Of a stretch of DNA of 64,000 nucleotides, positions 13,031 to 39,700 are shown in pieces (position 1 is the stretch's first letter; every line of letters starts with the position of its first letter). Origin of the DNA: Myxococcota bacterium (GTDB taxonomy: Bacteria; Myxococcota_A; SURF-8); assembly GCA_965140415.1 (NCBI GenBank), contig OZ223209.1, positions 2,112,001-2,176,000 of the forward strand. Reading direction: 5' to 3'. A program made the position numbers and the translations under genes. The notes beneath the pieces are model-generated. The model did not search any database. It was not told where the DNA came from and saw only the letters and a program-made list of their open reading frames with translations.

Positions 13031-13117
13031 GCCGAAGTGGCGGAATTGGTAGACGCGCTAGGTTCAGGGTCTAGTATTCGCAAGGATGTGGGGGTTCGAG
13101 TCCCCCCTTCGGCACCA
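13031..13117 (+). tRNA. tRNA-Leu (anticodon CAG)
   Basis: GCCGAAG/CTTCGGC acceptor stem plus ACCA; D-arm GGCGGAATTGGTAGACGC; anticodon loop TTCAGGG; long variable arm; T-loop TTCGAGT. Confidence 0.96.
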
Positions 13118-13118
13118 T
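13060..13118 (+). repeat. att core, left copy (59 bp, tRNA-Leu 3' portion)
   Basis: AGGTTCAGGG...GGCACCAT identical to 43051-43109. Confidence 0.95.
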
Positions 13119-15974: not shown

Positions 15975-16082
15975 GGTAAACTCTCCATGTTTGATCAAGA
16001 AATAGTTGTTTAAATACGTGTACTTAGTGTTATTACACTGGAATCAGGAGAGTTAAAAGAAAAAGTGGCCGGAAAAATTCAT

Positions 16083-19000
16083 TCAACCATCCGTACCGGT
16101 GGTCTTAAGAATTTCAATAATGTTTATCTCGATGTTTTCCTCGTTCTCCACAATGACAGGTGGCGGGCTTTCAAGCGAATCAAAGTGGACCACTCTGTCA
16201 CCTCGTATGACTTTGTTCATTCGTTTACTCCACGTCATCATTTGTTCCCAATGCTCGATGTCCAGGTTGTAAATCATAGGGCGGGCGGTCTTACCATTCA
16301 CCGTGACAGATTTCTGTTCTGAATGAGTTTTTAATCCAAAAAATTGGAAACACTTCCCGAGTACCGCCACCGGGTTGGACTCTAGTTGTTTCATATTGAT
16401 GCCGGTCCCCTGCAAGGCATAAAGTGCATTCGGGACTTTCCCCATGACCCGGTTCACCCGCTCTATGCCGCCACCGGCAACCAGCGAGTGCTTATTCCAT
16501 TGGATTGTTAGGGATGGATGCAAAGGGGCCGGATCAAATATATATAGGATATTATCTCTTGGTACCGCCCCTTTGCAGTTGGGTAATGTATTGTTATCAT
16601 TAGATAATAAGGGTGCAAATAGGCTATCCGCAAATTCTTTACAAAGTAGGGTCTGTATGATCGCTTTTACCAACACCATCCTAAGTGTGTGAGCCTTGGA
16701 ATGCGCTCGATAGCCAGTCAGCATTGTCATCTGATCCTGATAGGTAGCTGCGTCACGTAATCGATCCATCATTAATCCGCATTGAATGATCCGCATGATC
16801 TTTTTGGAAAGATTCCGGTCTTTGTCCATCAGTACCAGATCGGCATCCACTTCTCCGAAAAATCCTAGGATCCTCGCCCGTTCCACTTCCAACTTTTCCT
16901 CCGGTGTTTTCTCTCGTTTGATTTTCAGTTTCCCATACTCATCCAAGGTCAATGGCTCAGCCATTGCAATCGATATGGCATATTCCTTGTCAGTTTGGTT
17001 TCTCAGATCCTGTATTTCTCTGCGGATCCATCGCCGGTTTGCATCCGAGGTAGGTGTTGCTTCGCTTTGTTTCGCCCCCTTTGATTCCCACCACCACTTC
17101 CAAACAGCGGGAACATTATGCCAACCCTTTCGTCTATAAAGTTCAGCCGATATGGAAAATCTGAAATGTGCGCTATCATCTACGTCATAGACAGGTTTCC
17201 CGCCCTTCATTAAAAACCGTCCTGCAAACCTGCTTGTATGATGATGGACGGACAATAATTGTTTTTCAACGTCCTTCAGGTTAAGAGGCTGATAATTACG
17301 AAATCCGGGGCTAATCCAATAGTGAATGGTTTTCATCTCACGGCAACGATGCCGCATCTGTAGCAGGGTACGGACATTCATCCCCGCCACCCTTTCGCCG
17401 ATAAAAAACAGGTGATCGAATCTGTCTGATGGATCCGATGGATCGTAGCTGATACCTGTATCCAACGTGGGTGTATACATCAATAGATCCACCTCTTTCC
17501 AGTGCTCTCCCACATTCGAAAGCATCTTTCGAGTGCTGTCATCCGTCTCTTTATGATAGGCAAGGATGGCTATGGGTCTGCTCTCACCCGAGGTTTTGTC
17601 GGTAATATCGAAAAACCATTTTCTGAAAAACCTCTCTAGACCTTTCAAGTACTCCTTTGAGGTGCAGGCAACGACACAGCGCTCACCGGCATTCAATTTC
17701 TGGATAACCTGATAGACGATATCCTCTTTCTTTTTATATTCGATGCTCTCATGGTCATCGAGGGGGATGCTATGTTGAATTACATCAATGTCCTGATCGG
17801 TAAGACCCGCCATGTCCCGAATCACATTTTCAGTGAAATCCGATGCGAAACCATCCGTAGCAATGATTCTTCCTCCACTCATCACCGAGGCTTTCAGTAA
17901 TAGACTCAAATGATCATATACTTCGCCAGTATTGGCTCTATACCCCCGTGCGCTCTTCGGGATTGTCCCACCGTCCATATGCAACATGACACTTTCAGAT
18001 TCTTCAATGATTACAAGATCAAATCCATTACCAACCCATTGATCATTCTCATATCGGATTGGAGGGATACGTGTGATTGAATCCAGACAGATCACAACAC
18101 GATCCTCGATAATGTCTCCCTCTTGCAAGTCCTGATAGCATACCAATCCAAATTCTTTTGAAAGGGATCGTGCCAGCGATACCCTGTGGACGATAGCGAG
18201 GATTCTTTTATGCTGTGGATTGTCTTGAATCAGCTTCTGCAATTGGTAGGTTTTACCGGTGCCGGTATCAGCGGCAATAATGGTAAACGCTTTCTGCAAA
18301 TTGATGGGGGGCAGATACCGAGAGCATGATGCCAGATGCGAGGACGGGGGAGCCTTGATGGAATATTGATCGGCATCGGATACAAACCAGAATTCTTCAC
18401 AGCTAAAACAATGAATAAAGGGAGAACCATTGGGAGTAAGCCCCAAAGATGCGGATGGCGTGTTCGTATTCATATGAAATGGGCAGAATACGGACAAGGT
18501 GCTCCCCCCCGCTGTCAGACTGGATGCAGCTTGTTCAACAGTGGTGGTTGTCCCATCTGCCAGTCTGACAGGTGTGGAACCGGGGATACTTTCTCCCTTT
18601 GTATTTATTGGGTTACTTCCGGTTTTCTCAGCCTTTACATGTGACGGACTCCTCCTGCTATCATCTAGCAGATCTGCAAGTTCGCGCTGTTCATCATTAA
18701 TAGTAAGGTTCTTCCGTAATGTCTTAGCCAAATCAAGACATTCCATCCCCCGCTCGGTCTCATTGGTTTTTGATGCAACCTTTTCCATTCTCTCCGCTTC
18801 GGATATCGCATCAAAGGCCAGATCAACATCCGTAACGCCCCGTGCGGCAAGGAGAGATTGTAATTTTTGCAGAAATACTTCTGGTGGGTAGGGATGATTT
18901 TGGGCATAAAGGGATGTCTGGATGCGGACTGGACCGGTTTCCTCATGATAGGAATTGTATCCAAGGACACCGGATGTTCTCATCAACCGATCCGGGTTGG

Positions 19001-19646
19001 TAATCCTAGAATCCGAACCGAACACAACCACTAAGTGGCGCTGTATATCATCAAACAGCTTTACGTCATCCTCAACCCCCATATCCAATAGCCGATCTGA
19101 TACAAAGAATCCATGTACGCTCTTTCCCGGTACCACCCGTTCCGGTTGAACCTGAGCCGCCTTTATGGATTCTTCTCGCCTGTCCCCCGAAAGAGTAAGC
19201 AGGGTTGGTAATAAACCCGTGGCAGCTACGAATTCATTGATGGATTGAATTTGGGACTCGATACTTGCATGATCCGCCTCAAAAGGAAAAGCGGACACAT
19301 ACCTTATATGAGACTTGGATAATCCTGCTCGATATTTAATTGCCGTATCACCGACCTCATTATATCGGCTTCTGACATCCAATGGATCGTAGAGGTTGCC
19401 GCAGAAATAGTGTCCGGTCAAACCGGGCAGATGACCGAACCAAAACAGGAGGTCTCCATTCTTGGATATCGCCGAGTTACCTTTTGGATCGGTCCCGAAA
19501 TATTTTATTTTATTCCTCAGATGCCGGTACAGTTCCGTGAATGCGGTCTCTGGTGAGATCGCCCCGAAAATGGGCAGGTTATCAGGATCAATAAGTTTCG
19601 ATTGAGTAATACTTTGGCTATTATTCTGGGTATTATAGATAGACAT
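16083..19646 (-). CDS. Primase-Zn finger-SF2 helicase replication protein (origin-binding/CyRepA1-like helicase)
   Basis: N-terminal FEAD, GKSVH, NPDRLMR primase-like motifs; CPFH...CFSC; ADTGTGKT, VHRVSL, IIEESE, YTPTLDTGIS, QMRHRCR. Confidence 0.8.
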   Translation of the reverse strand: MSIYNTQNNSQSITQSKLIDPDNLPIFGAISPETAFTELYRHLRNKIKYFGTDPKGNSAISKNGDLLFWFGHLPGLTGHYFCGNLYDPLDVRSRYNEVGDTAIKYRAGLSKSHIRYVSAFPFEADHASIESQIQSINEFVAATGLLPTLLTLSGDRREESIKAAQVQPERVVPGKSVHGFFVSDRLLDMGVEDDVKLFDDIQRHLVVVFGSDSRITNPDRLMRTSGVLGYNSYHEETGPVRIQTSLYAQNHPYPPEVFLQKLQSLLAARGVTDVDLAFDAISEAERMEKVASKTNETERGMECLDLAKTLRKNLTINDEQRELADLLDDSRRSPSHVKAEKTGSNPINTKGESIPGSTPVRLADGTTTTVEQAASSLTAGGSTLSVFCPFHMNTNTPSASLGLTPNGSPFIHCFSCEEFWFVSDADQYSIKAPPSSHLASCSRYLPPINLQKAFTIIAADTGTGKTYQLQKLIQDNPQHKRILAIVHRVSLARSLSKEFGLVCYQDLQEGDIIEDRVVICLDSITRIPPIRYENDQWVGNGFDLVIIEESESVMLHMDGGTIPKSARGYRANTGEVYDHLSLLLKASVMSGGRIIATDGFASDFTENVIRDMAGLTDQDIDVIQHSIPLDDHESIEYKKKEDIVYQVIQKLNAGERCVVACTSKEYLKGLERFFRKWFFDITDKTSGESRPIAILAYHKETDDSTRKMLSNVGEHWKEVDLLMYTPTLDTGISYDPSDPSDRFDHLFFIGERVAGMNVRTLLQMRHRCREMKTIHYWISPGFRNYQPLNLKDVEKQLLSVHHHTSRFAGRFLMKGGKPVYDVDDSAHFRFSISAELYRRKGWHNVPAVWKWWWESKGAKQSEATPTSDANRRWIRREIQDLRNQTDKEYAISIAMAEPLTLDEYGKLKIKREKTPEEKLEVERARILGFFGEVDADLVLMDKDRNLSKKIMRIIQCGLMMDRLRDAATYQDQMTMLTGYRAHSKAHTLRMVLVKAIIQTLLCKEFADSLFAPLLSNDNNTLPNCKGAVPRDNILYIFDPAPLHPSLTIQWNKHSLVAGGGIERVNRVMGKVPNALYALQGTGINMKQLESNPVAVLGKCFQFFGLKTHSEQKSVTVNGKTARPMIYNLDIEHWEQMMTWSKRMNKVIRGDRVVHFDSLESPPPVIVENEENIEINIIEILKTTGTDG

Positions 19647-23486: not shown

Positions 23487-24104
23487 CTAACAGGTGATGG
23501 ACTGTACAGCAGTCAGAATGTCATCGGTCGTAGGATGCGTATAGATCGCCGTTGTCGAGGGAGAGGAATGTCGAACAGCGCTTTGTACGAGGCGTAGATC
23601 CCCGGTAGCTCTCCATAAGGCTGTGGCGTATGTGTGCCTAAGGGCATGAAAATTATGAATCCGGTCAAATCCAGATCTCTTCTGCCATCTATGAAACATA
23701 TGCTGGATAGTCCTGACACTGATACGTCCACCGGATTTCTTGCTAGCAGGACCGCCGCCTCTTGATAGAAACAGCGGAGCATTGGGTTCAAGACTCTCAC
23801 CGATGGCTCTCTTATAGGTAATGTACCTTGAAACTTTCCTTCTCAGGCGATCAGGCAGGGCAATCACACCGCCCTTGTTGCCTTTGGTAATCTCCGGTCT
23901 GAGGTTCCAGATACCCCGGACGCCCTTCCCGTTAAGCACATCCCCGATGTTGAGACCTACGATCTCACTCACCCGTAATCCACAGCCTAAAGCAATACTC
24001 AGGATTATATGGTCCCTTATATCAGCCTCAGCCCTTCCGGTTGCCTGCAAGAGAGCCTTTACCTCGGCATCCGTCAATGTGCTTGGTGTTTGGGTATGTC
24101 TCAT
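23487..24104 (-). CDS. Small tyrosine recombinase (catalytic domain only)
   Basis: 205 aa; GLRVSE, TKG, HALRH, RHSS, AIY. Confidence 0.88.
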   Translation of the reverse strand: MRHTQTPSTLTDAEVKALLQATGRAEADIRDHIILSIALGCGLRVSEIVGLNIGDVLNGKGVRGIWNLRPEITKGNKGGVIALPDRLRRKVSRYITYKRAIGESLEPNAPLFLSRGGGPASKKSGGRISVRTIQHMFHRWQKRSGFDRIHNFHALRHTYATALWRATGDLRLVQSAVRHSSPSTTAIYTHPTTDDILTAVQSITC

Positions 24105-24658: not shown

Positions 24659-24869
24659 AACGAACTCTCTCCACTCTTGACAGAGCTTTCCTGTGAACTT
24701 AGAAACAATACAATCTGCTTATAATATCCCCCTCGGAAAACACTTGAAACATTAAGGTCTTATCCGACAAGGATGGCTTTTTACTCAATATTGTGCTATC
24801 TTGACCCTAGATGATCTGAGACATTTTTGCTGTAATTCAATCAATTTAATCGGGGTGGAGACGGTTGAT

Positions 24870-26510
24870 ATGCCTAAAACTTCGAAATCCAATGCGAAAG
24901 TAAAGTCAACGGGAACCAAGCAAGACAAGATCGTAACTCCCAAATCTCGTACAAGCGCTTGTATCAACTTTCCAAGTCCCGATAGATACGCAGCAAAAGC
25001 AGCGAGAGTAATCATCCGCATAGAAGAGATTGCTGAAAAAAGCAGCATGTCAAAAGCACTGGAAATCGGTCGTTTTCTATTGGACGAATATTTTGGGGGA
25101 TCGGTCCAAAAATACAAGCAACGGGTGAAAAAAGCGGATTCCGCAAGCAATATTCAGTTTGATTATCTACTGTCCCTACCGAAACTCCAGGCGATTGGCT
25201 TGTCTCCTGTAACGTTGCGAAACTACATCAAAGTCGCTGGATATTATCCTGATTATCCGAAAGGAATTCGAGAGAACCTCCCCCTCGGAATTCAACAGGA
25301 ACTGGCGAGGATTACAAACAAACAAAAGCGCTTGGCTCTTGCAAAACGTGCGGTTGAAGAGAACTGGACATTTAGAAAAGCCAAACAAATTATAAGTGGT
25401 GAAAACGAAAACCATCGAGGCGGGGAAACAACCAATAGGGAATTCGATTTGGATTCCATCGACAAAATGATGCTCCGAATATGGGATAAATTGATATCTA
25501 CACAGAATGAACAATTACTCTCCGAAGCGCTTGGCAGAATAACCTTGCTCAATAAGCAGTTGCAGGGGGGACAACAGGTTTTATTGCATTCCTCTCCAAT
25601 CATTTTGAAATCCCAACCTCCAAAGAACAAACTTCCCATACCGTTCAGCTATTTCGGGGGAAAAAGCAAGGTCTGTAATTACTTGATTGATTGTATTAAA
25701 AGCTACTACGAGAAAACAGGAAAGGATTGGAAACTTTGTGAGGTCTTCGCTGGTGGTTTCTCTGTCTCTCAAGCAGCATTGGCTGATGGCTTTGTTGATA
25801 AGGTCTGGCTTAATGACCGAGATCCCCTCAATCAAGCATTTGTGAATTCCATTTACTATGACCATGAAAGATTGATCGAGGCTGTGTTGGCGGTCGAGGT
25901 GACCCACGAAACGCTCAGAGATAAAAGACTAGCCTTGAAAACAGGACTCTATGACAGCTGGTATTACGACGAATCACATGTTTACGACGAAGTGGTTTCA
26001 AGACTCATCATGTGGGAATGCAATATTATGAGCAAACCCGAAGGAATAACCTGGCAGGAGGGAGATCCTTCCAGATGGAATCCTGAACGAGTAGCAAATA
26101 GCATCGAGAAATTGCATTATATGCTACAGGGGCATATCGATGGAAGAGAGATTTCAGGTAGGGATTTTCGAGATATCCTTTTAGGAGACGCAATGAAAGG
26201 GAACCAAGATCTTTTTTTGTATCTTGATCCTCCATATATCCGATCCAAGTACCGACAGTATAAACACAATCTAACGGATGAGGACCATAAAACACTGGCG
26301 AGTATTCTCAATAAGGTCAAAGCCCCTTGGTTGATGACCATAGACGACCATCCAATGGTCGCCTATCTGTACCATCTCAATCACCGCGTGGAATGGATAA
26401 AAAACCGGGGAGAATATTGGATATGCTCTGGTTTGCATGAAAGCATTCTGGATCCAATTCTGAAATATGCTCAAATAAGTGAGGAGTCACCAGAATCGGG
26501 AGTGGCGTAA
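24870..26510 (+). CDS. Dam/D12-class N6-adenine DNA methyltransferase with ~250 aa N-terminal extension
   Basis: PFSYFGGKS, EVFAGG (motif I), LND, DFRDI, YLDPPY (motif IV). Confidence 0.85.
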   Translation: MPKTSKSNAKVKSTGTKQDKIVTPKSRTSACINFPSPDRYAAKAARVIIRIEEIAEKSSMSKALEIGRFLLDEYFGGSVQKYKQRVKKADSASNIQFDYLLSLPKLQAIGLSPVTLRNYIKVAGYYPDYPKGIRENLPLGIQQELARITNKQKRLALAKRAVEENWTFRKAKQIISGENENHRGGETTNREFDLDSIDKMMLRIWDKLISTQNEQLLSEALGRITLLNKQLQGGQQVLLHSSPIILKSQPPKNKLPIPFSYFGGKSKVCNYLIDCIKSYYEKTGKDWKLCEVFAGGFSVSQAALADGFVDKVWLNDRDPLNQAFVNSIYYDHERLIEAVLAVEVTHETLRDKRLALKTGLYDSWYYDESHVYDEVVSRLIMWECNIMSKPEGITWQEGDPSRWNPERVANSIEKLHYMLQGHIDGREISGRDFRDILLGDAMKGNQDLFLYLDPPYIRSKYRQYKHNLTDEDHKTLASILNKVKAPWLMTIDDHPMVAYLYHLNHRVEWIKNRGEYWICSGLHESILDPILKYAQISEESPESGVA

Positions 26511-26512: not shown

Positions 26513-27334
26513 CTAAATACATAATTCCCATTCACATTCTTGACTATCCAGTATATTCGCTGCAAGTTGAAAACGGATTAGCCAGTCAATGTGTTCTTGA
26601 TTTAGAAATTGAAATTCCTCCTTAAAAGTAAATCTCTGATCTAAAACCGAAGATATTTCTCGTGAAGACGTTACAATTTGAAGTTCAAATAGCCCAAGGT
26701 TGTCTATATTAATTACGAAATGAACAGCTCGATAGGGATCCTGATGATAACGAGATCTTGGATTGAAATAATAGTTTCGACACCGTGAAATGTAATCAAT
26801 ATCGTGCATCCAGATAGAAACGCTCAAATCCAATAAAGCTTGAAGAGATGGAACAACAATTCGATATCGTACTAAATCCCAGAACGGAATCACAAATTCT
26901 CGTATCTGATCGGGAATCCGGTTACCTTTAAATTTCTTTGCTACTGATTCTGCGGATTTTAAACCACCATACCAGCAAACTATTGCTTCTCTAGGAACAT
27001 ATCCAATGTATGATTCAACCCGCTGATGAGCGGCTCTATCAACCTCACGGCGATGGTCCATATCGTACAACATATTCAACCATATTCTCGAATATGAGCA
27101 TAGAGGCTTCATTCCCACTTCTTGGACTCGTACAAACTGTCGTCTAACTCTATCCGTTTCATGAGCATGGATTGAATTAAGGATTTCCGTATTTTGTTCT
27201 GCTGTTTTGTCAATCATCAAAGCACGATGAAAGAATTCTTCGCGCCTTATTGGCGATCTTCCTTCCAATAACTCGCTGAAATTGTAATCTTTTGTTTCCA
27301 GGAGTTTCAAATGATTTCGTAAGTAGCTTTTCAT
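26513..27334 (-). CDS. Single-domain RelA/SpoT-like synthetase (SAS-like), divergent
   Basis: LKSAESVAKK, DLVRYRIVV, YRAVH, FELQIVT in the order and spacing of RelA/SpoT synthetase motifs. Confidence 0.75.
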   Translation of the reverse strand: MKSYLRNHLKLLETKDYNFSELLEGRSPIRREEFFHRALMIDKTAEQNTEILNSIHAHETDRVRRQFVRVQEVGMKPLCSYSRIWLNMLYDMDHRREVDRAAHQRVESYIGYVPREAIVCWYGGLKSAESVAKKFKGNRIPDQIREFVIPFWDLVRYRIVVPSLQALLDLSVSIWMHDIDYISRCRNYYFNPRSRYHQDPYRAVHFVINIDNLGLFELQIVTSSREISSVLDQRFTFKEEFQFLNQEHIDWLIRFQLAANILDSQECEWELCI

Positions 27335-27346
27335 GAGTTTTAATAT

Positions 27347-28252
27347 TTACGATAATTTCCCTTTTAATTTAAGTACATGCTCAACTCTAGGAACCAAACT
27401 TATTAGCGTAATTCTCTCTCCCATCACACGCATACGTAAAAAACCTTGATACATTAGCGTTTTCGCTCGGTAATACAGTTCATCTGCAATCATTTCAGTT
27501 ACGGGGCCTTGATTAATCATTCCTATAGATAGGTTTATTCGCTCAAGCAGGTCATCAACCGAAATCTCATCTCCTTCTGCTTGGCTATTGATGAGCTTTA
27601 TAATTTGTCTTTGGGTTCCAGTCATATCGCTCCATAGTTCGAGAATAATTCTTTCGTATTGCGGGTCATCAACTTTTGGAATTCTGAGAGTGGAATAGGA
27701 ATCGTGATAATTCGGTTCCGGCACCTCGGGAACTTTGACAGTGGAGACCAAGTGCCAAATCGATTTGGCGAAAGTTTCGAGTTTATCACGTCCATCTATT
27801 CCTGTATTTGTTCTTCCCCTCATTTGGTGCCAATCCAGGTATAATCTTGAAAGTAGATCTTCCTTCCATGTCTTAACATCATCACCACAAAATCCTTCAG
27901 TATTATTCACATCTATATAAAGTATGGGTAATATCAAATCGGATCTTCCTATTAATCTCTCTTGTTCTCTAAACCACAAGTATTCCTTATGACACCAATC
28001 ACTTTGAAAGTAGGTTGGAGAAAGAATTGGTACCATGCAACAACTTGTACTGATAAGGTGATGGATCCTAGTTTCTAGGTTTTGACCGTGTCTAACATTG
28101 AGACTGTCAATCATTAGATTTATTCTAGAACCGTGCAGCACTTCGATTGCTTTATGCAATCGATTCCTTAGGCTAGTTATCTCATTCTTATCATAGTCAT
28201 CAGCTGTCCTAGAATAACTCCAAAAAACCGAACCGAATTTTGGGGTATCCAT
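27347..28252 (-). CDS. TIR-domain protein with C-terminal winged-helix-like domain
   Basis: VFWSYSR, VPILSPTYFQSDWCHKE (catalytic Glu), ILPILY; C-terminal MTGTQRQIIK...ELYYRAKTLMYQGFL; AGGAGG RBS before ATG 28252. Confidence 0.85.
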   Translation of the reverse strand: MDTPKFGSVFWSYSRTADDYDKNEITSLRNRLHKAIEVLHGSRINLMIDSLNVRHGQNLETRIHHLISTSCCMVPILSPTYFQSDWCHKEYLWFREQERLIGRSDLILPILYIDVNNTEGFCGDDVKTWKEDLLSRLYLDWHQMRGRTNTGIDGRDKLETFAKSIWHLVSTVKVPEVPEPNYHDSYSTLRIPKVDDPQYERIILELWSDMTGTQRQIIKLINSQAEGDEISVDDLLERINLSIGMINQGPVTEMIADELYYRAKTLMYQGFLRMRVMGERITLISLVPRVEHVLKLKGKLS

Positions 28253-28265
28253 CAGCGCCCTCCTC

Positions 28266-29189
28266 TTAACATTTCGCAGCATATTTTAAAGTATGAATAA
28301 ACAGTTTGTGCTGAACTAACTTAAGATCTCTCAGTAATGATGGATAAGGCATGTCACAATCATTAGGCCTAATTGACGAATGGATTGTGCAATTTCTATT
28401 TGCGACCTGTGCTATCACCTCTGTTTTGTCGATAACAGCACGCAGAGCAACGGCAGTCTTCTCTAGATGTTTCACATAGTTGATTTTTAATGGAGAATTC
28501 CACAATCTAGCTCGTAACCATCTGTAGATCGTCCTTACTAACTCAAATTGAACAGAACCACCAGGGCCATGCTTTGGATCTGAAAAGGACTGGTCAGATA
28601 AAGCCCACCAACCATGTAAATACCTATCTAACTCTAATAGTTTGTTAAGATGCATAGGAACGGTATTCAGCATGGCTTTGTCAACTATCCTACAAAACTG
28701 ACTATATAATAAAGTATCCCCATCTGCAAGTTTACTGTTGGCGACGATCTGCCAAATTCTTCCATCAAGACAATCCTTTTCTAAACTCTTGACATCATAA
28801 AACAATACTGAAACTTTGCGATCTAATAAGTTGCTTAATTGTATCTTAATTTTGTTTCGCAATTCATCAGAATACAGTGGAGGAATCATATGAACGCCAA
28901 CTAAATCGATATCAGAATAATGTGATGGTGTCCCACGGGAGTATGAACCTGACAACAAAATAGTAATACTGTAGTTAACACATAAGCGTTTTATCTCAAG
29001 TGAAATTGCTTGTTGGGCTGATGCCAACAATGGTGCTACGATTCCATTGAAAAGAATAATGGCTTCTTTATAATAGCTATAATCGACAATTCTTTGTATT
29101 GTGGCTTGTACATGTGTAGAATTGAAAGAATTTTCTGAAAGGATCTGTGAAACATCTTGTTTTAAAGTGAGTTGGCAATTTTCGCCCAT
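28266..29189 (-). CDS. Pol-beta-superfamily nucleotidyltransferase, GlnD/GlnE/DUF294-like
   Basis: LSGSYSRG-x5-SDIDL signature; LADGD; DPKHGPGG..FE resembling the GlnD/GlnE KxxxGG motif. Confidence 0.75.
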   Translation of the reverse strand: MGENCQLTLKQDVSQILSENSFNSTHVQATIQRIVDYSYYKEAIILFNGIVAPLLASAQQAISLEIKRLCVNYSITILLSGSYSRGTPSHYSDIDLVGVHMIPPLYSDELRNKIKIQLSNLLDRKVSVLFYDVKSLEKDCLDGRIWQIVANSKLADGDTLLYSQFCRIVDKAMLNTVPMHLNKLLELDRYLHGWWALSDQSFSDPKHGPGGSVQFELVRTIYRWLRARLWNSPLKINYVKHLEKTAVALRAVIDKTEVIAQVANRNCTIHSSIRPNDCDMPYPSLLRDLKLVQHKLFIHTLKYAAKC

Positions 29190-29294
29190 GTTAATATCCT
29201 AAAACACTCGGAAGATCTGTTTAATACCAGAAACAGGCAATTCAACTAGTGGTCAAAAAGAATGCTCATCACCAATATCAATTAGTTAGCTAAT

Positions 29295-32200
29295 TCATAT
29301 AGAAACATCCAATACGAATGATTTTATCGTGTATGGTGGCTTGGAAAGATTTTTTGCTTCAGCTTCAAAATGCTTTATTGTCTGCTCCAAATCGTCATCG
29401 TGTTTGTGCTTCCCCATTTTTTTACGGTGTTTAGGGCAATCTTCATCCCAATCCTCACAGCAATACCAGCCAATAAGGTAAATTCCACTGGTGCAGGCGT
29501 ATTCATTGAGATACTGACCCAACAATTGATTTTCCATTGCTGTTTGCAAGTCTTTATTCCAGCATCCTTTGCACTCAATAATTACTGTTAATGGGTTTGA
29601 TTCATTTACACAAGGTACTTCTATTTTTATATCAGTTTTATCCTCTACATTTATAAGCGGTTCTCGATTGACAATAATATTTGATTGTTTTAGGTCATCT
29701 CGCAAATCGTTGGCGATGATTCTTGAAAATTCAAGTTCACCTTTGGATCTGTACGGCTTGTTGGTCCAAAAATCGAGATTGTGCCTTATCTGATTGTTTG
29801 ATATCTTTGCCTGTATTCTTGTAAGAGATTCTAGTACTATCGCTTGCAGGTCTTTTTCGGTGTTTACGATTCGCTTTTTGGGGTCTGAAAATAGAGCAAA
29901 CAATTCTCTCATTGTTGGGGGATTCCATGAATTCGCGATTAGGTTTTGTTTGGCAACTGGCACTCTCCATTTTAGCCAGTTTATTTCAGGAAACTCTTCT
30001 GAAAGTGTTTCGAGAATATTCACTCCAGCTTGAGTGTTTTTATTGTATATTTCCTCAAATATCATTTCACGAATTCTAGTTATATGCTGTCTGCTTGAAA
30101 CGATGCCATTTGGGGGAGGGGGATCTTCATTGTAAGGAAATATCTTGGTAAGGGAAATAAAGATTTTACCCAATATCTCTTCATCTGCATTTTCGAAGAA
30201 ATATTGGAAATATGAGCCGTGATTGTTTGCCAGTGACATGAAGAATTCTTTTCCAAACTCATCATTCCTGTTAATTGCATCAAGGATTTTTGTTACTGAT
30301 ACTATAGGGCGAAAGCGAAATAACGCCTTTGCGGCATATACAGCTATTCTCTGTAATGGATCATCGTTACTTGGAACTCGTTCGATAATGTCCAAAGCAT
30401 AATCCATCACTTCGGTACCGGATCCGTTTTCAAGTATTGTTTCTAAGATGTCAAAAAAGCATTCTGGACGTAGAGAATTTTCATATGCTTTTAAAGTTAA
30501 GGCTTTTTCGAAATCAGGATTCCATACCAGCTTGACCCGTTTAGGAACGGTTCTTGTCAAATCATTCCCATTACTATTCCCATCAATTATCGATATGAGG
30601 TAATCAGTCATTTTGGTTTTTGATATTGAGATAGCTTTTGTCAATAAGGGGGCAATTGCAACTTCATCGTCCCTGTTTCTTACTAACGGCATTTTCCACA
30701 GGACAGAGTTCCATTTTCTTAAAATATAGCCATCATTCGAATCCAGTATTTCTGGAGACACATCTGCAATTAGTTTTAGTGCAGCATATCCATAAGCCAT
30801 TTCGTTTGTAATATCTCTTGTTCTTATCCATTGGTCTGTTAGAGGATCTTGCTTTTCAAGATATTCAACTGCTATTTTTATATAACAGTCTCTCTCAACG
30901 CTATTAGCCGTGACCCAACCTGGTGATTGTGACAAATTCTTCAGTTTCTGAATGGATGGAGATGGAGAGGAGGATTTCGATTCTCGTGTTAACTCTGATG
31001 CGATGTTATTCCATAATTCGGTTTTCCCTTTGCTCTTAATATGTTTTAAGCAACGCTCAATTTTCTCTTTAGGATCAAGCCATTCCGATGTCATTTGAGG
31101 AATATGTGATATTTCTTTTTCAGATTCACGTTTTCGTGATTTAATTTCTTTCCCCGAAAAACAGCTAAAAATAGATGCAAGAGTATTGTCATCTTGAAAT
31201 GTACTGTACAATTCTTGTTTTTGCTCATCCTTGAAGTGACGGAAAATGTCCCTTAGTATAATTCCCCATTTCTCCCTTTCATTATGGGTATGTATTGAGC
31301 TTAGCTTTTCAATGGCCCAGCCAGAGTCTTCCGTTAATAAAACAAAATGATAGGTGTGATAGTTTTGCTCTGGAGAATATTCTGTTCTTTGCACCAATTC
31401 AGAAAACAGAATTCGTCTCGCTTTGCTATCTTCTTTTAGTATATCAGCGACTACATCATTATTTATGAACCTCCACTGATTAACAATTGTTTCTCCTTTC
31501 AATAATGTTTCAGCTAGTTTCCCTGCGACCTGCTCGTTTTCGATAAACTTCAATGACTTTTCGAAAATCTGTTCTGGTAGTCTTGCATAGTCGGAGTTGT
31601 CCCATTTATCAATTAATTGAGTCCAGAGAAGTGCATATATGAAATCCTCCTCTTTTAATTTTTCAGGTAGTTCATAGAGGAAGCTACGGTAGCTACCGCT
31701 GAATCTATTGTTTTTTATTGGAGTTATTAAGGTGAATAATTCTAAGGTTGAAAGTGTGTTAGGCCACAGTCGATTAAATACATTGCCCTTTAAAGTATCA
31801 TTAAGATCGGAGTCTGAATCTTCTTCAATGAGGGGTTTAAGGTTTAGTAAACTATCTTCACTGCCTATCTTGCAGATCGTTTCTGAAGCAACACAGCGAA
31901 TTTCATAGACCTCATCTTTATTGAGGGCGACCTCCAAGATATCATTCTGTATATCTAAGCAGTTACACTGCTTTGCAAATTCAATAGCAAAATACCTTGT
32001 ATCATTGTCTATCGCCTTATTCAGGAATACAGCCTTTAATTGTTCACCAAGTTTAGCATGTGAAAGAAGGTTTAAGTTGGTATAATATGTTGGATGAGTG
32101 ATTTCAACATTGTCTATGGATTCCAGCAAACGATCTACAATCTTTTCTTTTTCATCGTCTGAAAATACTTTCGGATCAATTCGAATAAGGACATCAGGAT

Positions 32201-33470
32201 TGTTGGCTATGATATCATTACGTAAATCAGGTAAAAAATTCGCTAACCATGTTGCAACGTGGCTTAATTGAGGAATAATTTTACCTGAATTGTGAAACAA
32301 CAGACCTTGAAGTTGTTTGTTAGGAATTTTCTCTTCTTTGCAATGCCATGCTGCAAGAAATTCAGCGTATATCCTGTGTGACCAGACAAAGCGATTTTGT
32401 CCAAAAGATGTGAACAGAGGAGTGTCAAGAACCTCTATGTATTGCCGAATTCTTTCCTCATTGTTCTCAACAATTTCTAGTTCAATAAGTTCATTGAGTG
32501 AAAAATCGAAATCTTTTAATTGTTGGATATTATTACCAAGCGAAACAGTATTCTTACCTGAAAAAAGCATTATGGCTGCAATATTTGCAGCCATCTTCAT
32601 TCTTTTTTCGGGTGAAACTTTCCCGGAATGTCCACTGCTAATTCTGCTATCATTCTGTTCTTTACAGAAGTTTATGATCTGACTTTCAAACAATTCCTGT
32701 CGACTGTCGGGTATCTGGCCATTTATTTTGTAATGCTGAATCAAAGAAACTAACTTAAATGGTGTGTTTGCGAAAGCTATCGCATCTTTAGCTATGATTT
32801 CGTCTAAAAACTTTATATCATCAAACCCTTCTTGCTTGGCAGCATGAAGCACATTTCTTGATTGGAGACTACCTAATTTGAATTTTGCGTATTGTTCAGG
32901 ATCATCCAGTAATTCAGGAAAACTTTTATCAAAAATTGTAGGCCAGACCGCAGGACGACAAGCGATTCGTAAATAAAAGCGATTCCAGTCAATTTTATTA
33001 TTTCTCAGAAAATCGATTATAATCTGAGCGGCTTTATTCACATCAATCAATACTTCATCAAAACTATCTAGAAAAACATACAGAGAATGTGATCCATTGA
33101 CCCATTCGTTATAGTCTTGATTATCGAAAATTTCATTTTTCAGGTTTGTACGATCTTCAATTGAGTTAAGATCGATCAGTTTAATATAATCACCATTGTT
33201 TTTGTATATTGGTTCAATACGTTTGATTTCTTCTCTGATTGCATCTGTTTTTCCAGTTCCAGGTTCTCCAAGTAGTCCTAAAATCTTATAATGATTGATT
33301 TCTTGTATCGTTTTAAGCTTTGACTTAGCAGATTCAAACACACCAAATTCTGTTAGAAAACCACTGAAATTGTGTAAGTCAGATTCAAGATACTCAGACT
33401 TTCCTTCGTCTTCAATCCAATATCTTGTCCAATCATAATGCGTTTTGGTTATCATATCCATGCCCAACAA
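29295..33470 (-). CDS. NACHT/STAND-like NTPase with helical repeats and C-terminal PD-(D/E)xK-like nuclease
   Basis: LLGEPGTGKT Walker A, FLDSFDE Walker B, IACR, WSHRIYAEFLAA; C-terminal REP..KTDIKI..IIECKG; start could be 33461 or 33455. Confidence 0.8.
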   Translation of the reverse strand: MLGMDMITKTHYDWTRYWIEDEGKSEYLESDLHNFSGFLTEFGVFESAKSKLKTIQEINHYKILGLLGEPGTGKTDAIREEIKRIEPIYKNNGDYIKLIDLNSIEDRTNLKNEIFDNQDYNEWVNGSHSLYVFLDSFDEVLIDVNKAAQIIIDFLRNNKIDWNRFYLRIACRPAVWPTIFDKSFPELLDDPEQYAKFKLGSLQSRNVLHAAKQEGFDDIKFLDEIIAKDAIAFANTPFKLVSLIQHYKINGQIPDSRQELFESQIINFCKEQNDSRISSGHSGKVSPEKRMKMAANIAAIMLFSGKNTVSLGNNIQQLKDFDFSLNELIELEIVENNEERIRQYIEVLDTPLFTSFGQNRFVWSHRIYAEFLAAWHCKEEKIPNKQLQGLLFHNSGKIIPQLSHVATWLANFLPDLRNDIIANNPDVLIRIDPKVFSDDEKEKIVDRLLESIDNVEITHPTYYTNLNLLSHAKLGEQLKAVFLNKAIDNDTRYFAIEFAKQCNCLDIQNDILEVALNKDEVYEIRCVASETICKIGSEDSLLNLKPLIEEDSDSDLNDTLKGNVFNRLWPNTLSTLELFTLITPIKNNRFSGSYRSFLYELPEKLKEEDFIYALLWTQLIDKWDNSDYARLPEQIFEKSLKFIENEQVAGKLAETLLKGETIVNQWRFINNDVVADILKEDSKARRILFSELVQRTEYSPEQNYHTYHFVLLTEDSGWAIEKLSSIHTHNEREKWGIILRDIFRHFKDEQKQELYSTFQDDNTLASIFSCFSGKEIKSRKRESEKEISHIPQMTSEWLDPKEKIERCLKHIKSKGKTELWNNIASELTRESKSSSPSPSIQKLKNLSQSPGWVTANSVERDCYIKIAVEYLEKQDPLTDQWIRTRDITNEMAYGYAALKLIADVSPEILDSNDGYILRKWNSVLWKMPLVRNRDDEVAIAPLLTKAISISKTKMTDYLISIIDGNSNGNDLTRTVPKRVKLVWNPDFEKALTLKAYENSLRPECFFDILETILENGSGTEVMDYALDIIERVPSNDDPLQRIAVYAAKALFRFRPIVSVTKILDAINRNDEFGKEFFMSLANNHGSYFQYFFENADEEILGKIFISLTKIFPYNEDPPPPNGIVSSRQHITRIREMIFEEIYNKNTQAGVNILETLSEEFPEINWLKWRVPVAKQNLIANSWNPPTMRELFALFSDPKKRIVNTEKDLQAIVLESLTRIQAKISNNQIRHNLDFWTNKPYRSKGELEFSRIIANDLRDDLKQSNIIVNREPLINVEDKTDIKIEVPCVNESNPLTVIIECKGCWNKDLQTAMENQLLGQYLNEYACTSGIYLIGWYCCEDWDEDCPKHRKKMGKHKHDDDLEQTIKHFEAEAKNLSKPPYTIKSFVLDVSI

Positions 33471-33601: not shown

Positions 33602-33794
33602 AAAAACTGATCAGGATTAATTGTAATTCAACAGTAATGGTTTAATAACAATCACTGGCAGCTGCATCTGTATAGAGTTATTTTACACTATAGTTAATAA
33701 AAAAACTCTTGACTTAGATAATGCTCCATACTAATTCTGATTAAGTATTCAGCCAATCCCTGCAATCCAGTTGATCCTTAACGAGGAGACTCAA

Positions 33795-36700
33795 ATGAAA
33801 TTCAAATACCAATTCCAAACCAATGCAATGTTACTTGTTGTTGTATTATTGGTGGTAACGGCTTGTAAAGTAACAATAGAAAAGCCAGATGGGGACACAT
33901 ATACCGCAGGTGAAGAAATACATTTCAAGGCAGAATACGATGGAACCGGCGAAATAAAATGGAAAAGCGAATATACTTCTCCTGAAGCAATAACACAGAC
34001 CATAGGTGATAGTGAATTTAAACAAGGGGTAAGAGAGACTGGCAAGGGATATCCCTGGGAATTCTATAAATCAGACCTTCCTATTGGGGTTCATAAAATT
34101 ACCGCATATAAAAACGATACAGACATGGCGGAAGTTACAATCACCATTCGCTCATTTTGTGATGTACCGGGGACTGATTGTTCTTCATTCGGTGATGGAT
34201 TATGCGTAGAAGGCGTTTGCAGTTATGAGGCTAATGCCTGTATCTCTAGATCATTACCTGATGGAACGAGTTGTGATGATGGTGATCCTGCTACCTATGG
34301 AGAACTATGTATAAGTGGAGAGTGCGCCGCTGAATATGGGATATTAAGTACTGACTTTCAGGATTTCGGTGTCGACTATATAAGCTCGGAAGCACGGAAA
34401 CCTTTTATTATGGATCAGGCAATATCGAAATTGAGTTTATATTCCGGAGAAATTATCGAAGATGAAAAGGAACTGCAATTAAAGGGGCGTGGAATAGATT
34501 TCTCAATTAAACGGTATTATCGTAGTGGTGTAATTCATAAGGAAAGCGCCGTTTTTGGAAATTGGGATGCAGAGTTTAACGAATATCTCATTTCATCTGA
34601 TCTTGGAAATGAAATGAGTTACTATAAGGGTACGGGCTTAATTTATGAGCTTAAGAAAGTCCAAAATCAACCTCGTACTTGGATTTCAACCAATGATGGA
34701 TTTTCAGGAATATTCCAGGAAAAATCAGGCGCTGTCTACAATGTGCCTAGTGGATGTACCGTTGCGTCTGTACGGCAATCTGGATTCGGGCAAATCGTAA
34801 ATGGTATCTGGTTACGGGAAGCAGATGGAACAAGGAAGTTCTTTATACCTACAGAAACCTATTATGGAGAACAACATAATGGAAATATTTATCGGTTAGC
34901 AAAAACAATCGATATAGATGGGAACGCAATATCTTATTATTACCAAAATGTGACAGATAGCGACAGAAAAAGGGTTTGGTGTATTGTAGATACGATGCTG
35001 CGTCCGATTTCTGTTGAATATGAAAATGAGTATTCAAGGAACATATCGAAAATCGAATACTTCGATGGGCGTACTGCCAAATATTTGTACAATGATAACG
35101 GTCAATTAGCTACTGTCCAACTTCAAGAACCCACAGACAATACTGGCCAGCAATTCTTTAATTACCTTGTCTATACTTATCATGTGAATGAGGCCAATAA
35201 TCCTTTGGCCAGCATTCAGACTAGTGATGATATTGAGGCGGGGCGAGAGGCTAGCCAAACCTTTGAATATGATGAAAACTACCGACTTTCCACCTGGAAC
35301 GTTAGAGATTCATATGAACAAGTTGGAACTTACACGTTGACCTATGAAAAAGCATACGTCTCAGATTTGCAAGACCGAGATGCTTTACACAATCAAACAA
35401 CACAAATAGATCCATCTGGAGTTACAACGACATTTAGGTTCAATAAAGATGGTCTTATGAGAGAAAGGCAAATTTTCGATGATTTGCATGTAGGTGCTAA
35501 TGATTCAGCCTTTTCCGTTACAGAAAGCGTTGAATTCCGGTACTTTTGGGACAATGAAGGCAATTTAGTAGAAGGTATAAAGCCGGAAGGGAACTCTGTT
35601 GTTTACGAATATACAAACGCCGCAGGAGTGTATAGTGAACAAGATCGGATAGATGAATATTGGATCCAGAATTGGCAAAAACGCTACCATATTCACAATA
35701 TTACACAGAAAACAGAGAAAGCAGGGCCGCGTGGAGATGGTTTTGGCGGTTATGCCACAGACAAAGTAACAAGATATTATTACGAACCCATTGCCAACAA
35801 GCTGTACAAAAAAGTGGATCCAATGGGCCAAGTGAGAAAAACAATATTCGATTATCAGGAGAGTTCCGAAGGAGACGTTCGCAACCATTTTGAAGATCCG
35901 ATTATTATGAATCAAACTCCAAGTGTTAGCCTGGTATTTCCTGAAAGCATGGAATTTGGTTTGGGAGATATTAACCACAATGATGAACTCGATCCAATGC
36001 GGGCTCATGCCATCAAGATTCAGATGGGCATTATTGAGCAGGATGATGGTTCCAGCCAAGATGTATCCAAGGAAATGGAATATGATTTCCATGGTCGCGT
36101 CATAAAAATGTACGATGAAATCGGGGTGCTTACCGAATATAGCTATGGCAAATTACCAATTAGCGATAATGCATCAACACTGGGGCAAGGGTATCTCGCT
36201 GAAGTATTGATCGACGCAAATTATCTTGAAAGAGCGCTACCTTTTGAGGCTCTACATGAAAGAACTTCATATGAAGTTAATGATTCAGGCATAGTTGTAA
36301 AAGAAGTCAAACCAGATGATTCTGTGAAACGGTATTATTTCAATTCTTGGACACTGAATAATAATTTATGTGTCTATGAATTCACACCGCTTACTGGAGG
36401 AAAAGGATTCTATTCCTATGAAAACTACGAATATTCTAGGATGGGTCGATTGGTACGTAGTTCCAAGTATGTAGGGGGAATCAACAGCCACGAAGTTGGG
36501 GATTATCTTGTAGCGAGTTATTCCTATGACAGCATGGGGCGAAAAACAAGACAATGTAAGTCGGTGACCGAAAGCATCAAGGCTTGCAATAATTATGAAT
36601 ATGATGCGCTTGGGAGAAAAATACAAACGGAAACACCGGAAGGTGTCGTAACGAACTACATCTATAACAGCTTTGGAAAACTGTACAAAACAGAACGTGG

Positions 36701-39700
36701 TTCAGGCAACAGCTTAATTCGTGTTATGCGCTACTATGACAGTAACGGCAACATGACTTCAAGACGAGAAGATGTAGATAACAACAACGACGGTATGCCT
36801 GATGGTCCAGTGTTTGTATTTGATGGATTTGATCGTTTAGTACAAAAACAGTTCGAAGATGGGACTGCATACCGCCGTCGATATAACAAATTGGATAAAA
36901 TGACGCTGGAAAGATATGTGTCGGATGACAATTCGAGTCTATCCCGAGTACGGTACGAGTATGATAGCTTTAGCCGCCGAACCAAAGTTTTAGCGGATGT
37001 ATATGATTTGGAGGGAGGAACCGGCTTGATCGACACGCTGGAATGGAAATACGGGTATGATGCAACAAGTCGAATTCTGCGTGAGGTTTCACCATCCGGC
37101 GATTATACAAGGTGTGATTATGATGGTGCGGGTCGCATAGCGGCTTGTTTTGACTCTGAAGGTAATCGAATCGAGTATTTCCGTAATGAAATTGGACGGG
37201 CCGAGGCAATTGAAATTACCAATATTACCGATCCGGAGGTTACGGAAGCTGAAACAAGAAGCTATCGCTGGGAATATTCGTACAATGCTTTGGGAAAAAT
37301 CACGGAACGCAGACGCGTCGATACCGCAGACAATGATAATTTCCTACTTGAAGAATATGAGTATGACAATCTAGGTAGATTAGAAACCTATACGAATGCA
37401 GACAGACATACCACTTTTTACTATCGCGATTTGCTTGGACATTTACTTCGAGTAAAGAAACCCGTCCTGGCTGATGAAAACAATCCCGATGGTTATGTCA
37501 TGATGTGTACGGATTACGATCTGGACGGTAACGTTGTTGCGAAATATCCGGATGGCAATATCGGTTGTGCTCCAGATCCAAATATCGAATACACCTATAC
37601 GGAAACTGGCCAGTTGTATGAAGCCATTTATCCGGATGGAAGTTTCACCAGAAGATCCTACAACAAGGGAAATCAGCTAGCTCAATTCATCGACCGGAAT
37701 GGATCCATTATATCCAACAGTTATGATGCTCGCGAACGATTAACAGGCAGATCTGTCACACGTGGTGTTAATGTTGTGGGTACGACCGAAGAATCATTCG
37801 TTTACGATGGATTAGGTTTTCTTACAAGGGCCATTACCAACAACGATCCCGAAACAAATGATGACGATGTGGTTGTTAATATGGAGTACGATTCTCTTGG
37901 TCGTCTCTTGCATGATAACGTGAATGGCGATGTAACAGCCTATGAATACTCGGGTGAGTTCATGAACCGGGTCACCTATCCTTCCGGTAGAGTACTGGAT
38001 CTTGGAAGGGATCAAAAAGGTAGGATAAAATCCCTACAATTCGCAGCGGAAATGAATCCTGTTGCACGTTTTGACTGGCTTGATGGTTCCTATTGGGCGG
38101 GGCAATTTGGAAACGGAACGGAAGATGCCGTAGACTATGACGAGTTTGGACGCCTCAATCGTCTCTCTGCGTGGGATGGTGAAGGATCTAGTCTTTTAGA
38201 TTTCAGCATTTTGCGAAACGGAATGAATCGCCCGACAGAACGGATCGACTATTTGCTTAGTACCTCGGAGCAATCTGTCGGTGACCAGTTCAATTTGGAT
38301 GAACTCAATCGAATCAGGGGCGTCAAACATAACATAGCGCTGGATACCCCTGCTGCCCTGCCGGAATGGGGAGAAGAGTATGGGTATGATGGAAGAAACA
38401 ACATTGTTGAACAGAATATCAATGGGGTTGAGTACGAATTTTCCGTAAACACCCTTGATCAATACATATCCCGGATCAATCGAAACACTGGGGAGCAAAT
38501 CTCCTACTCTTACGATGATGCAGGCAATCTGATAGGAAAACAGGGGGCGAGTGAGAATGAATTGTTCTCATTCAACTTCCGAAACCAAATCAACTATTAC
38601 TCAAAAACATCCGAGAACTTAGATGTCAAATACATCTATGATGCGTTAGGAAGAAAACGTTCCAGAATCGCTGCCTCTAACATGGGGAACGTTGATGAAA
38701 GCATTAGTGAAACCATCTATCGGTACCTGAAATGGGAAATTGTCGAAGAGGAAACGAATCGGGATGGCTCGTTTTCAGAGGGGCGTATCTTTATTCCTGG
38801 TACGAGCATTGACAGTGTCCTGCGTATGGACGTGCTGGATGGCAGTATGCTCGATCAAGAATATGAGAGCTATTACTATCACTATGATCAGAGTGGCAAT
38901 GTCCATTCTCTGACGGATCAATCCGGTGAGATCGTTGAAACCTATGACTACACAGCATATGGTTTAGCGACTCTGAATTTGACGCCCGGCAAGACTAGTC
39001 CCGGAAATAATATCATGTTCAAGGGTATGCGCTACGATCCGTACATGAGTTTGTATGATAGTCGCCTACGGTGGTACGATCCGAGCATAGGACGCTTCAC
39101 GTCGGTTGACCCCATTGGGATTTGGGGAGATACAAGCAACCATGGAAACGGATATGGTTTCTTAGGACTGAATACATACTATGGTTCCGATCCTTTTGGG
39201 CTAATGGGAAGCATTTATTCTGATGTGTGGTCTCCAGAAGACTGTAGAGAGAATCGAAATATACACGGAAGGATGGGAGCTGGTGAGAATGCAGGAGGAA
39301 CAGGAGGAGCAGCAGTTCCCGATGTGCTCATGATATTTATGTACAATAACTGTGGTCATAGAGATGACGCATCGACTGGAGATGAGAATATAGGGGATGG
39401 TGGATATACTGGGATTACAGAGGATGGTGCAGGTTATACTGGTGATGCAAGTGGTGATTATGATGAAGATAATGACGATAATGACGATAATGACGATGAT
39501 GATGATGATGATGATGAAAGTAACGATCCAGATGATGAGAACGAAGAATGCGAAGATGGTAACTGTCCAGATGAGGAATCAGAAGAAGCTGACGAGCAAG
39601 AAACCGATGGAGGGGAAGGCTATCCCGCTGATCCAACCGAAGAGAATGTCAGTAACTTTGATTTAGCAAAGTTAATGCGGGCGCTATTTGGCGAAAGTGA

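Follow-up and report, generated by a model that had tools for sequence, protein, structure and literature searches.

The cassette described here comprises three genes at positions 26513-29189 of a 64,000-nucleotide stretch of contig OZ223209.1 (positions 2,112,001 to 2,176,000) from a Myxococcota bacterium, which we refer to as the window. According to the list of open reading frames (ORFs), the interval is filled exactly by three long minus-strand ORFs. They encode a nucleotidyltransferase (NTase), a protein that couples a TIR domain to a winged helix-turn-helix (TIR-wHTH), and a RelA/SpoT homologue of the small alarmone synthetase kind (SAS-like). In the direction of transcription, and with lengths in nucleotides (nt) or amino acids (aa), the elements are as follows:

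29190-29294, minus strand, intergenic region upstream of the NTase gene, 105 nt; possible promoter/operator region
28266-29189, minus strand, NTase gene, 307 aa
28253-28265, minus strand, spacer of 13 nt between the NTase stop and the TIR start, containing the Shine-Dalgarno sequence GAGGAGG (read from the sequence)
27347-28252, minus strand, TIR-wHTH gene, 301 aa from the ATG at 28252
27335-27346, minus strand, spacer of 12 nt between the TIR-wHTH stop and the SAS-like start (read from the sequence)
26513-27334, minus strand, SAS-like gene, a RelA/SpoT homologue of 273 aa

A preliminary description of the locus had reported three co-oriented genes with gaps of 13 and 12 nt, and both the ORFs and a reading of the sequence bear this out. 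The longest form of the TIR-wHTH ORF extends over 27347-28282 and would give 311 aa from an in-frame ATG at 28282. Translation most likely begins instead at the ATG of 28252, which GAGGAGG precedes by 6 nt; with this start, the gap after the NTase stop codon is 13 nt. The AT-rich placement of the cassette within a tRNA island, also proposed earlier, was found as well. Its guanine-plus-cytosine (GC) content is 36-40%, compared with ~50% in the flanks, which sets it in the AT-rich part of the window, and 59 nt from the 3' part of tRNA-Leu(CAG) recur as a perfect direct repeat at 13060-13118 and 43051-43109. These repeats are the attachment (att) sites bounding an integrated island of ~30 kb that carries the cassette. 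The translations contain the motifs GSYSRG...SDID in the NTase, WCHKE in the TIR domain, and GGLK, DLVRYRIVV, YRAVHF, and ELQIV in the SAS-like protein. An AT-rich inverted repeat of 11 nt (ATATCAATTAG / CTAATTCATAT, 29275-29285 / 29290-29300, 91% complementary, 4-nt loop) overlaps the stop codon of the preceding NACHT gene, where the 105-nt intergenic region begins; the winged-helix domain may use this repeat as an operator, or it may be a weak hairpin.

The SAS-like protein was recognized through its family profile and predicted fold only; as a single sequence, it returned no match in Pfam (E <= 0.1), NCBIfam, PADLOC, or the PDB. An exhaustive profile search gathered the family: with clusters drawn at 50% identity, 266 representatives lie within E <= 1e-3 and 148 within E <= 1e-10, and most members measure 260-300 aa. 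Among 81 aligned full-length relatives, 61 match the Pfam model RelA_SpoT (PF04607, best 9.8e-11), and the profile built from all 81 finds SAS/RelQ/RelP enzymes in the PDB at 5e-11 to 2e-8. Residues K126, D153, Y201, E217, and Q219 are invariant in 81/81 relatives, and G123, R156, R158, R202, and H205 are conserved in at least 90% of them. The motifs of the protein (a basic G..K..S..K strand, D..R.R, Y/GYR..H, and E.Q) align with 2be3 and 6fgk, and we take the invariant residues to hold the corresponding synthetase roles. Furthermore, the AlphaFold2 (AF2) model is of high confidence (predicted local distance difference test [pLDDT] 93, predicted template modelling score [pTM] 0.91). Its top Foldseek matches are SAS2/SAS1/RelP (E 7.6e-6), and VIA-align comparison of the catalytic domain (residues 86-273) gave Z 12.6-13.5 for SAS1/SAS2/RelP, 11.5-11.8 for CapRel, and 8.7 for Tas1, with Bacillus subtilis SAS1 at Z 13.5 and a root-mean-square deviation of 3.8 A over 173 residues. 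The residues before this domain (~1-85) form a helical N-terminal extension that is conserved in the family and has no match in the structure lists. The synthetase assignment made initially is upheld by the family profile (5e-11) and by the Foldseek and VIA-align fold matches, and by profile and model the protein is a predicted member of the RelA/SpoT homologue (RSH) synthetase superfamily, of the small alarmone synthetase type. A word-indexed search with it returned 3 relatives; none was found in viral contigs, and a tblastn search of plasmids and phages found nothing.

The TIR-wHTH protein consists of a TIR domain (residues ~8-150), a low-confidence linker (~172-195), and a winged-helix domain (~195-301). 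The first of these matches Pfam TIR (PF01582) at 1e-10 and 42.2 bits, against a cut-off of 21.3, and TIR_2 (PF13676) at 2.5e-10 and 41.4 bits, against a cut-off of 28. A profile of three sequences, namely the window protein and its homologues in two further loci described below (L003 and L004), reaches the TIR domains of TLR1/6 and of flax L6 in the PDB at 1e-6. S84, C87, and E90 (SDWCHKE) are invariant in all three, and E90 aligns with the SxWCxxE position, SKWCLMEL of the flax L6 TIR, so that the conserved glutamate noted earlier holds. The Glu of SxWCxxE is the catalytic one in flax L6; the TIR domains of TLRs carry the same Glu although they are not known to be NADases. The AF2 model has an overall pLDDT of 56, with C-terminal blocks at 70-86, and the structure comparison used its C-terminal domain only. 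All 50 top VIA-align chains align to this region (195-301), and the chains inspected are winged-helix domains, namely those of Orc1/Cdc6 (Z 11.6), RosR (11.1), and ArsR/MarR (9-10), in agreement with the wHTH proposed at the outset. Defense libraries gave partial or low-scoring matches: two PADLOC ThsB models at 6.4e-4 and 0.017, over partial stretches only, a weak single-domain match to PDC-S66, and NCBIfam ThcB4 at 3.6e-4, where 19.5 bits stand against a cut-off of 220. Complex prediction for TIR-wHTH with the SAS-like protein scored 0.00, which counts neither for nor against binding. The word-indexed search with TIR-wHTH returned no homologue, and none was found in viral contigs.

The core of the NTase lies at residues ~65-135, with GSYSRG, SDID, and a third acidic residue in YDV. 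It passes the Pfam NTP_transf_2 cut-off by a narrow margin (2e-4, 22.1 bits against 21), which agrees with the NTase domain first proposed. Its other matches are weaker: NCBIfam MntA (NF047752) at 4.9e-4 and 20 bits, below the cut-off of 60; ANT(4')-II at 1.5e-3, far under the cut-off; HI0073 and kanamycin nucleotidyltransferase (KNTase) among the remaining weak best matches; and, in PADLOC, a single-domain match to PDC-S09 only. Database look-ups for both the NTase and the TIR domain returned generic NTase and TIR families only. A profile of two sequences (window and L004) found MNT-type NTases and KNTase as its best matches in the PDB. The two copies differ in size (307 and 228 aa) and share 22% identity over 169 aa (E 1e-5), including GS..R, SDID, and DV.S, and they also align beyond the generic core, at K206..GG..E216 and W224. 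By these comparisons, the NTase appears nearest to the MNT/KNTase group.

The preliminary description had instead likened the NTase to the GlnD/GlnE class, and this was not sustained. The window protein has no GlnE, GlnD_UR_UTase, or DUF294/DUF294_C match at E <= 0.1, and in a whole-genome search at E <= 10 neither PF08335 (GlnD_UR_UTase) nor PF10335 (DUF294_C) touched the cassette locus; the best matches are MNT, MntA, HI0073, and KNTase. The sole related match to models of this type is that of the L004 NTase to DUF294, at 0.045, and the K..GG....E motif of both copies presumably resembles a motif of the GlnD/GlnE class. The C-terminal part of the NTase is helical (~170 aa), and its last 167 aa have no Pfam match. 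Within it, RNCTIH at residues ~264-269 shows an Rx4H pattern like the HEPN motif; a HEPN reading of this region was dropped, as no HEPN model matches and the L004 copy lacks RNCTIH. A search of the rest of the source genome gave no NTase homologue, and each of the three genes is single-copy there.

The genomic context of the SAS-like family is visible for six lineages: the window, L001, L002, L003, L004, and L005-L008. Seven of these loci, in four lineages, came from a metagenome scan, and a species-genome scan added one truncated archaeal copy. In three of the six lineages (window, L003, and L004), a TIR-wHTH gene directly precedes the SAS-like gene in the same order. In L003, the TIR-wHTH gene (152-1045, 297 aa) ends 10 nt before the SAS-like gene (1056-1892); in L004, it (938-1780, 280 aa) overlaps the SAS-like gene (1777-2631) by 4 nt. 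The partners of this pair are 26-41% identical between loci. Compared with the window, the TIR-wHTH homologues of L003 and L004 align over their full length at 26-28% identity, and their SAS-like proteins are 28-33% identical. Furthermore, a quick maximum-likelihood tree of 84 family members places the TIR-linked SAS-like proteins in two separate clades, with SH-aLRT supports of 100 and 98. The low identities and the two clades therefore indicate an old, retained pairing and not one recent copy, and recurrence in two unrelated metagenome contigs is more than would be expected by chance.

The full triad occurs in two loci, the window and L004. In the latter, the NTase gene (228 aa) is convergent and overlaps the 3' end of the SAS-like gene by 18 nt, and the three genes are the only ORFs of at least 80 aa in a trough of 26-39% GC, flanked by 52-62% GC, between H-NS and integrase genes. 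No other observation speaks as strongly as this trough for an NTase that moves together with the pair. A sample of 400 other genomes from the phylum did not yield any of the cassette genes; the TIR matches in it cover the TIR domain only. The three-gene unit put forward in the preliminary description stands in part. The homologues do co-occur elsewhere, as the pair in L003 and L004 and as the triad in L004, and the conserved unit appears to be primarily a two-gene pair. The conserved core is probably TIR-wHTH followed by SAS-like, with the NTase as a probable third component.

The cassette is horizontally mobile, and its pair is translationally close-packed. For its function we lean, with somewhat less than even confidence, towards a toxSAS-like (toxic small alarmone synthetase) module acting in toxin-antitoxin or abortive-infection (anti-phage) fashion. 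Enzymes of the toxSAS group take pyrophosphate from ATP and attach it either to a nucleotide or to the 3' end of tRNA, and the SAS-like protein would be the growth-arresting effector acting in this way, on either kind of acceptor. TIR-wHTH would be its dedicated partner, with the winged helix serving to sense or regulate; as its catalytic Glu is intact, TIR-wHTH would probably also be a second, NAD-depleting effector that cleaves NAD+. MntA is known to restrain HepT by nucleotidylylation, and the NTase might hold TIR-wHTH or the SAS-like enzyme in check in the same manner. We favor this toxSAS-like reading because the TIR-wHTH gene has an antitoxin-like position and is tightly coupled to the SAS-like gene; because the upstream partner varies across the family, with a protein kinase in one lineage; because the cassette sits on a tRNA-Leu island with an integrase and a NACHT neighbor; because the catalytic residues are intact in the TIR, SAS-like, and NTase proteins; because the pair recurs in two further loci and the triad in one of them; and because none of the three genes turned up in the sample of 400 further genomes from the phylum.

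Several observations weigh against this toxSAS-like reading. By profile and fold, the SAS-like enzyme is closer to the housekeeping RelQ/RelP/SAS1 enzymes than to CapRel or Tas1, and its sequence profile matches neither of the latter at E <= 10. The word-indexed search yielded no fused TIR-SAS protein or longer form, which is weak evidence. The known TIR-linked loci number three, and the other half of the lineages with visible context (3/6) have no TIR gene. L002, which holds the closest relative (42% identity), has an IS5-type transposase directly upstream and no TIR or NTase gene within 3.6 kb; its SAS-like protein was seen on 11 contigs, and therefore the enzyme is either tolerated without a TIR partner or silent there. 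The L005-L008 lineage carries an RsbW-like kinase and extracytoplasmic function (ECF) sigma/anti-sigma genes instead of TIR: an RsbW-like HATPase_c_2 protein (4.6e-26) is encoded 34 nt upstream of the SAS-like gene (L005 838-2131, L006 540-1833, and L007 251-1544), and an ECF sigma and zf-HC2-like anti-sigma pair follows the latter in L005 and L006, L007 showing the anti-sigma gene only. L001, a contig of an archaeal metagenome-assembled genome, encodes at 790-1305 a truncated 171-aa relative of the SAS-like catalytic core with an unrelated C-terminal tail, and the 789 nt upstream contain no ORF of at least 100 aa. Finally, the link to the NTase consists of one further locus, in opposite orientation and at 22% identity. 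The flanks visible in L003 (151 and 345 nt) show no NTase, and an ORF fragment downstream in that locus was rejected as an NTase for want of similarity.

It is important to consider the remaining contents of the island, since part of the weighing depends on them. The neighboring genes are the following:

13218-14423, integrase gene of the island
15303-15998, minus strand, winged-helix (PF22977) protein, on the island
16083-19646, minus strand, 1187-aa protein with a weak ResIII helicase match, on the island
23487-24104, minus strand, 205-aa ORF with a phage-integrase catalytic domain only (1e-32)
24801-26510, plus strand, 569-aa protein with a D12 N6-adenine methyltransferase domain and a weak ParB-HTH match
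29295-33470, minus strand, NACHT gene, 1391 aa, ending 105 nt upstream of the NTase gene
33771-39971, plus strand, 2066-aa protein with YD-type repeats and a very acidic C-terminal stretch (read by eye from the translation)

The winged-helix and ResIII-like genes have no PADLOC match and may together be another uncharacterized system of the island. The 205-aa ORF could be what is left of a second integrase, in which case the island would be composite. The methyltransferase matches PADLOC PD-Lambda-5_B at 2e-27, and its gene converges on the SAS-like gene with stop codons 2 nt apart. The 2066-aa protein, whose gene is divergent from the NACHT gene, looks from its translation like an RHS/polymorphic-toxin-type protein. 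The NACHT protein matches NCBIfam EruA at 8e-70 (236 bits, cut-off 1000) and HyoA at 9e-62 (209 bits, cut-off 1200), over residues 51-825 of 1391, with the equivalog cut-offs unmet; its last 251 residues have no Pfam match, and a literature search gave no source for the names EruA and HyoA. The stretch between the NACHT and NTase genes showed no terminator-like site, and read-through from the former into the latter may occur. A full-length paralogue, 41% identical, lies elsewhere in the source genome (C1:4094402-4098562; L035 4900-9372); its neighbor encodes a PglX-like (BREX-type) methyltransferase, and the triad is missing there. We regard the NACHT gene, which the preliminary description leaves out, as a separate one-gene system sharing the island, because this paralogue and the NACHT relatives in 9 of the 400 other genomes, where triad genes occur in 0, are found without the triad, and because the L004 triad has no NACHT between its H-NS and integrase genes.

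These findings bear on five other explanations. A four-gene operon led by NACHT, in which NACHT would do the sensing for three separately encoded effectors (NTase, TIR-wHTH, and SAS-like), is very improbable. The genes do share a strand at a distance of 105 nt with no terminator-like site between them, but the triad-free paralogue, the nine genomes with NACHT relatives and no triad genes, and the NACHT-free triad of L004 all speak against it. We consider it rather unlikely that only the TIR-wHTH and SAS-like pair is the system and that the NTase is an unrelated passenger of the island, for example, the remnant of an orphan MNT-type antitoxin or a small-molecule (aminoglycoside/lincosamide-type) nucleotidyltransferase. 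This would agree with the position of the NTase gene, upstream and co-directional in the window compared with downstream and convergent in L004; with the difference in size and the 22% identity of the copies; with the weak ANT(4')-II match and the KNTase/ANT enzymes among the PDB matches; and with the general abundance of MNT-type NTases on mobile islands. However, the 13-nt spacing, in which the Shine-Dalgarno sequence of the TIR gene follows directly on the NTase stop, speaks for co-translation of the two genes in the window, and the L004 NTase lies inside the same sharp GC trough with an 18-nt overlap with the SAS-like gene. The alignment of the copies beyond the generic core also counts against a passenger, as does the fact that no homologue was detected in the rest of the source genome or among the 400 further genomes sampled from the phylum.

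Other explanations retain the enzymes and change their wiring. A Thoeris-like relay or joint pathway, to which we give a low probability, would have TIR-wHTH sense infection and make an NAD-derived nucleotide that acts on the SAS-like enzyme, which would be activated through its N-terminal helical domain or would extend the TIR product by 3'-pyrophosphorylation, with a further nucleotidyl group added or taken off by the NTase; the order could also be reversed, with an alarmone from the SAS-like enzyme activating the TIR NADase. The catalytic residues kept in all three proteins fit working enzymes better than a steric antitoxin, the best defense-library matches of the TIR domain are, weakly, ThsB-type and Thoeris type III models, and the SAS-like family has a conserved N-terminal region of ~85 aa without a structural match in the lists. 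Against a relay stand the absence of any detected SLOG, Macro, SAVED, CARF, or cNMP-binding domain in the three proteins, the three of six lineages in which the SAS-like family has no TIR, and the wHTH itself, a fold that binds nucleic acid or protein and is not a typical nucleotide sensor. It is quite improbable, by comparison with the toxSAS-like reading, that the three enzymes catalyze successive steps in the synthesis of a composite immune nucleotide, with the winged helix as phage sensor. Here, the TIR domain would cleave NAD+ to an ADP-ribose-type molecule, the SAS-like enzyme would pyrophosphorylate the free ribose 3'-OH of that product and not GDP, GTP, or tRNA, and the NTase would add or remove a nucleotidyl group. 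Such a product would belong to a so far undescribed kind of signal or toxin. Stress signaling outside defense, in which the SAS-like enzyme would make (p)ppGpp-type alarmones and TIR-wHTH would be a transcriptional or allosteric regulator, seems equally hard to credit. The nearest relatives in sequence and fold are the housekeeping RelQ/RelP/SAS1/SAS2 enzymes, the L005-L008 context holds an RsbW-like kinase and an ECF sigma/anti-sigma pair, and the wHTH fold is typical of transcription regulators. Yet the gene lies on a strain-specific mobile island, and no member of its family was detected among the 400 further genomes sampled from the phylum. A TIR with its catalytic Glu and neighbors of the defense-island kind (NACHT, methyltransferase, and integrases) are atypical of housekeeping alarmone genes, and the GC trough of L004 marks foreign cargo.

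Taken together, the findings argue for a mobile module of two or three enzymes that are predicted to be active. We infer its role in defense, the assignment of sensor and effector, the substrate of the SAS-like enzyme, and any effect of the NTase on a partner; the two mechanisms that the preliminary description put forward, silencing by NMPylation and a relay of nucleotide signals, are likewise candidate readings. Two of the main nucleotide-based arms of bacterial immunity are TIR NADases and toxic small alarmone synthetases, which, to our knowledge, have so far been described in separate systems. If true, a mobile pairing of TIR with a SAS-like enzyme, accompanied by an NTase, could supply a toxSAS-type effector with a new sensor; alternatively, it could couple a Thoeris-like TIR sensor to a new effector, or the enzymes could jointly make a new nucleotide. 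Additionally, the analysis defines a distinct uncharacterized SAS-like family of ~150 clusters (50% identity, E <= 1e-10) with its own N-terminal domain and changing partner genes, which gives a handle on why bacteria carry many orphan RelA/SpoT-type genes.

The preliminary description recognized no named system in the cassette, and the model libraries agree. No system model in PADLOC or NCBIfam covers the cassette, and none of the 2026 antiphage models of NCBIfam scores above its cut-off; the PADLOC matches of the cassette proteins in the window, L003, and L004 are weak and confined to single domains (the TIR domain with PDC-S66 and ThsB, the NTase with PDC-S09). SLOG, Macro, SAVED, CARF, and cNMP-binding domains went undetected in the three cassette proteins. 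A literature search found no described system that combines TIR with a small alarmone synthetase, a search in which "RelA/SpoT" could not be queried as one term, and the main text of the toxSAS survey (PMC7229694) makes no mention of TIR.

Among described systems, the cassette most closely recalls three types. NACHT antiphage proteins (EruA/HyoA, bNACHT) also find a likeness at the locus, which belongs to the upstream neighbor, in its first ~800 residues. With Thoeris, the cassette shares a stand-alone TIR with an extra, probably sensing domain that adjoins a second enzyme on a defense-type island, and the Thoeris models ThsB and ThcB4 match its TIR weakly, far below their cut-offs. In contrast to Thoeris, it has no ThsA; SIR2, SLOG, and Macro domains are undetected in the cassette proteins or the scanned neighbors, and the second enzyme is a predicted pyrophosphokinase without a recognized ligand sensor. 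The MNT-HEPN (MntA-HepT) type VII systems resemble it in the NTase, which is of MNT type with GS..R and SD.D motifs and has MntA among its best NCBIfam and PDB matches. Unlike those systems, it shows no detectable HEPN/DUF86 domain in any neighbor or in the C-terminal part of the NTase, and its NTase is 2-3 times longer than MntA, with an unmatched C-terminal helical part.

The likeness to toxSAS and CapRel modules (FaRel, FaRel2, PhRel2, and CapRelSJ46) lies in a mobile small enzyme of the RelA/SpoT family with a tightly coupled partner gene. Two sources describe toxSAS-type modules with changing, protein-modifying, or sensing partners (PMC7229694, PMC8832971). In the family studied here, the partner of the SAS-like enzyme likewise varies by lineage, all its synthetase motifs are intact, and its model matches the CapRel fold at the Z-scores given above. 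The cassette departs from toxSAS in its partner, a TIR-wHTH protein of 300 aa with an intact Glu where toxSAS modules have a small antitoxin, an SAH hydrolase, or a Panacea-domain protein, and in an enzyme that is nearer to RelQ/RelP by profile and fold. On these comparisons, the cassette appears to be a rare variant of TIR/toxSAS-type modules, built from known kinds of parts.

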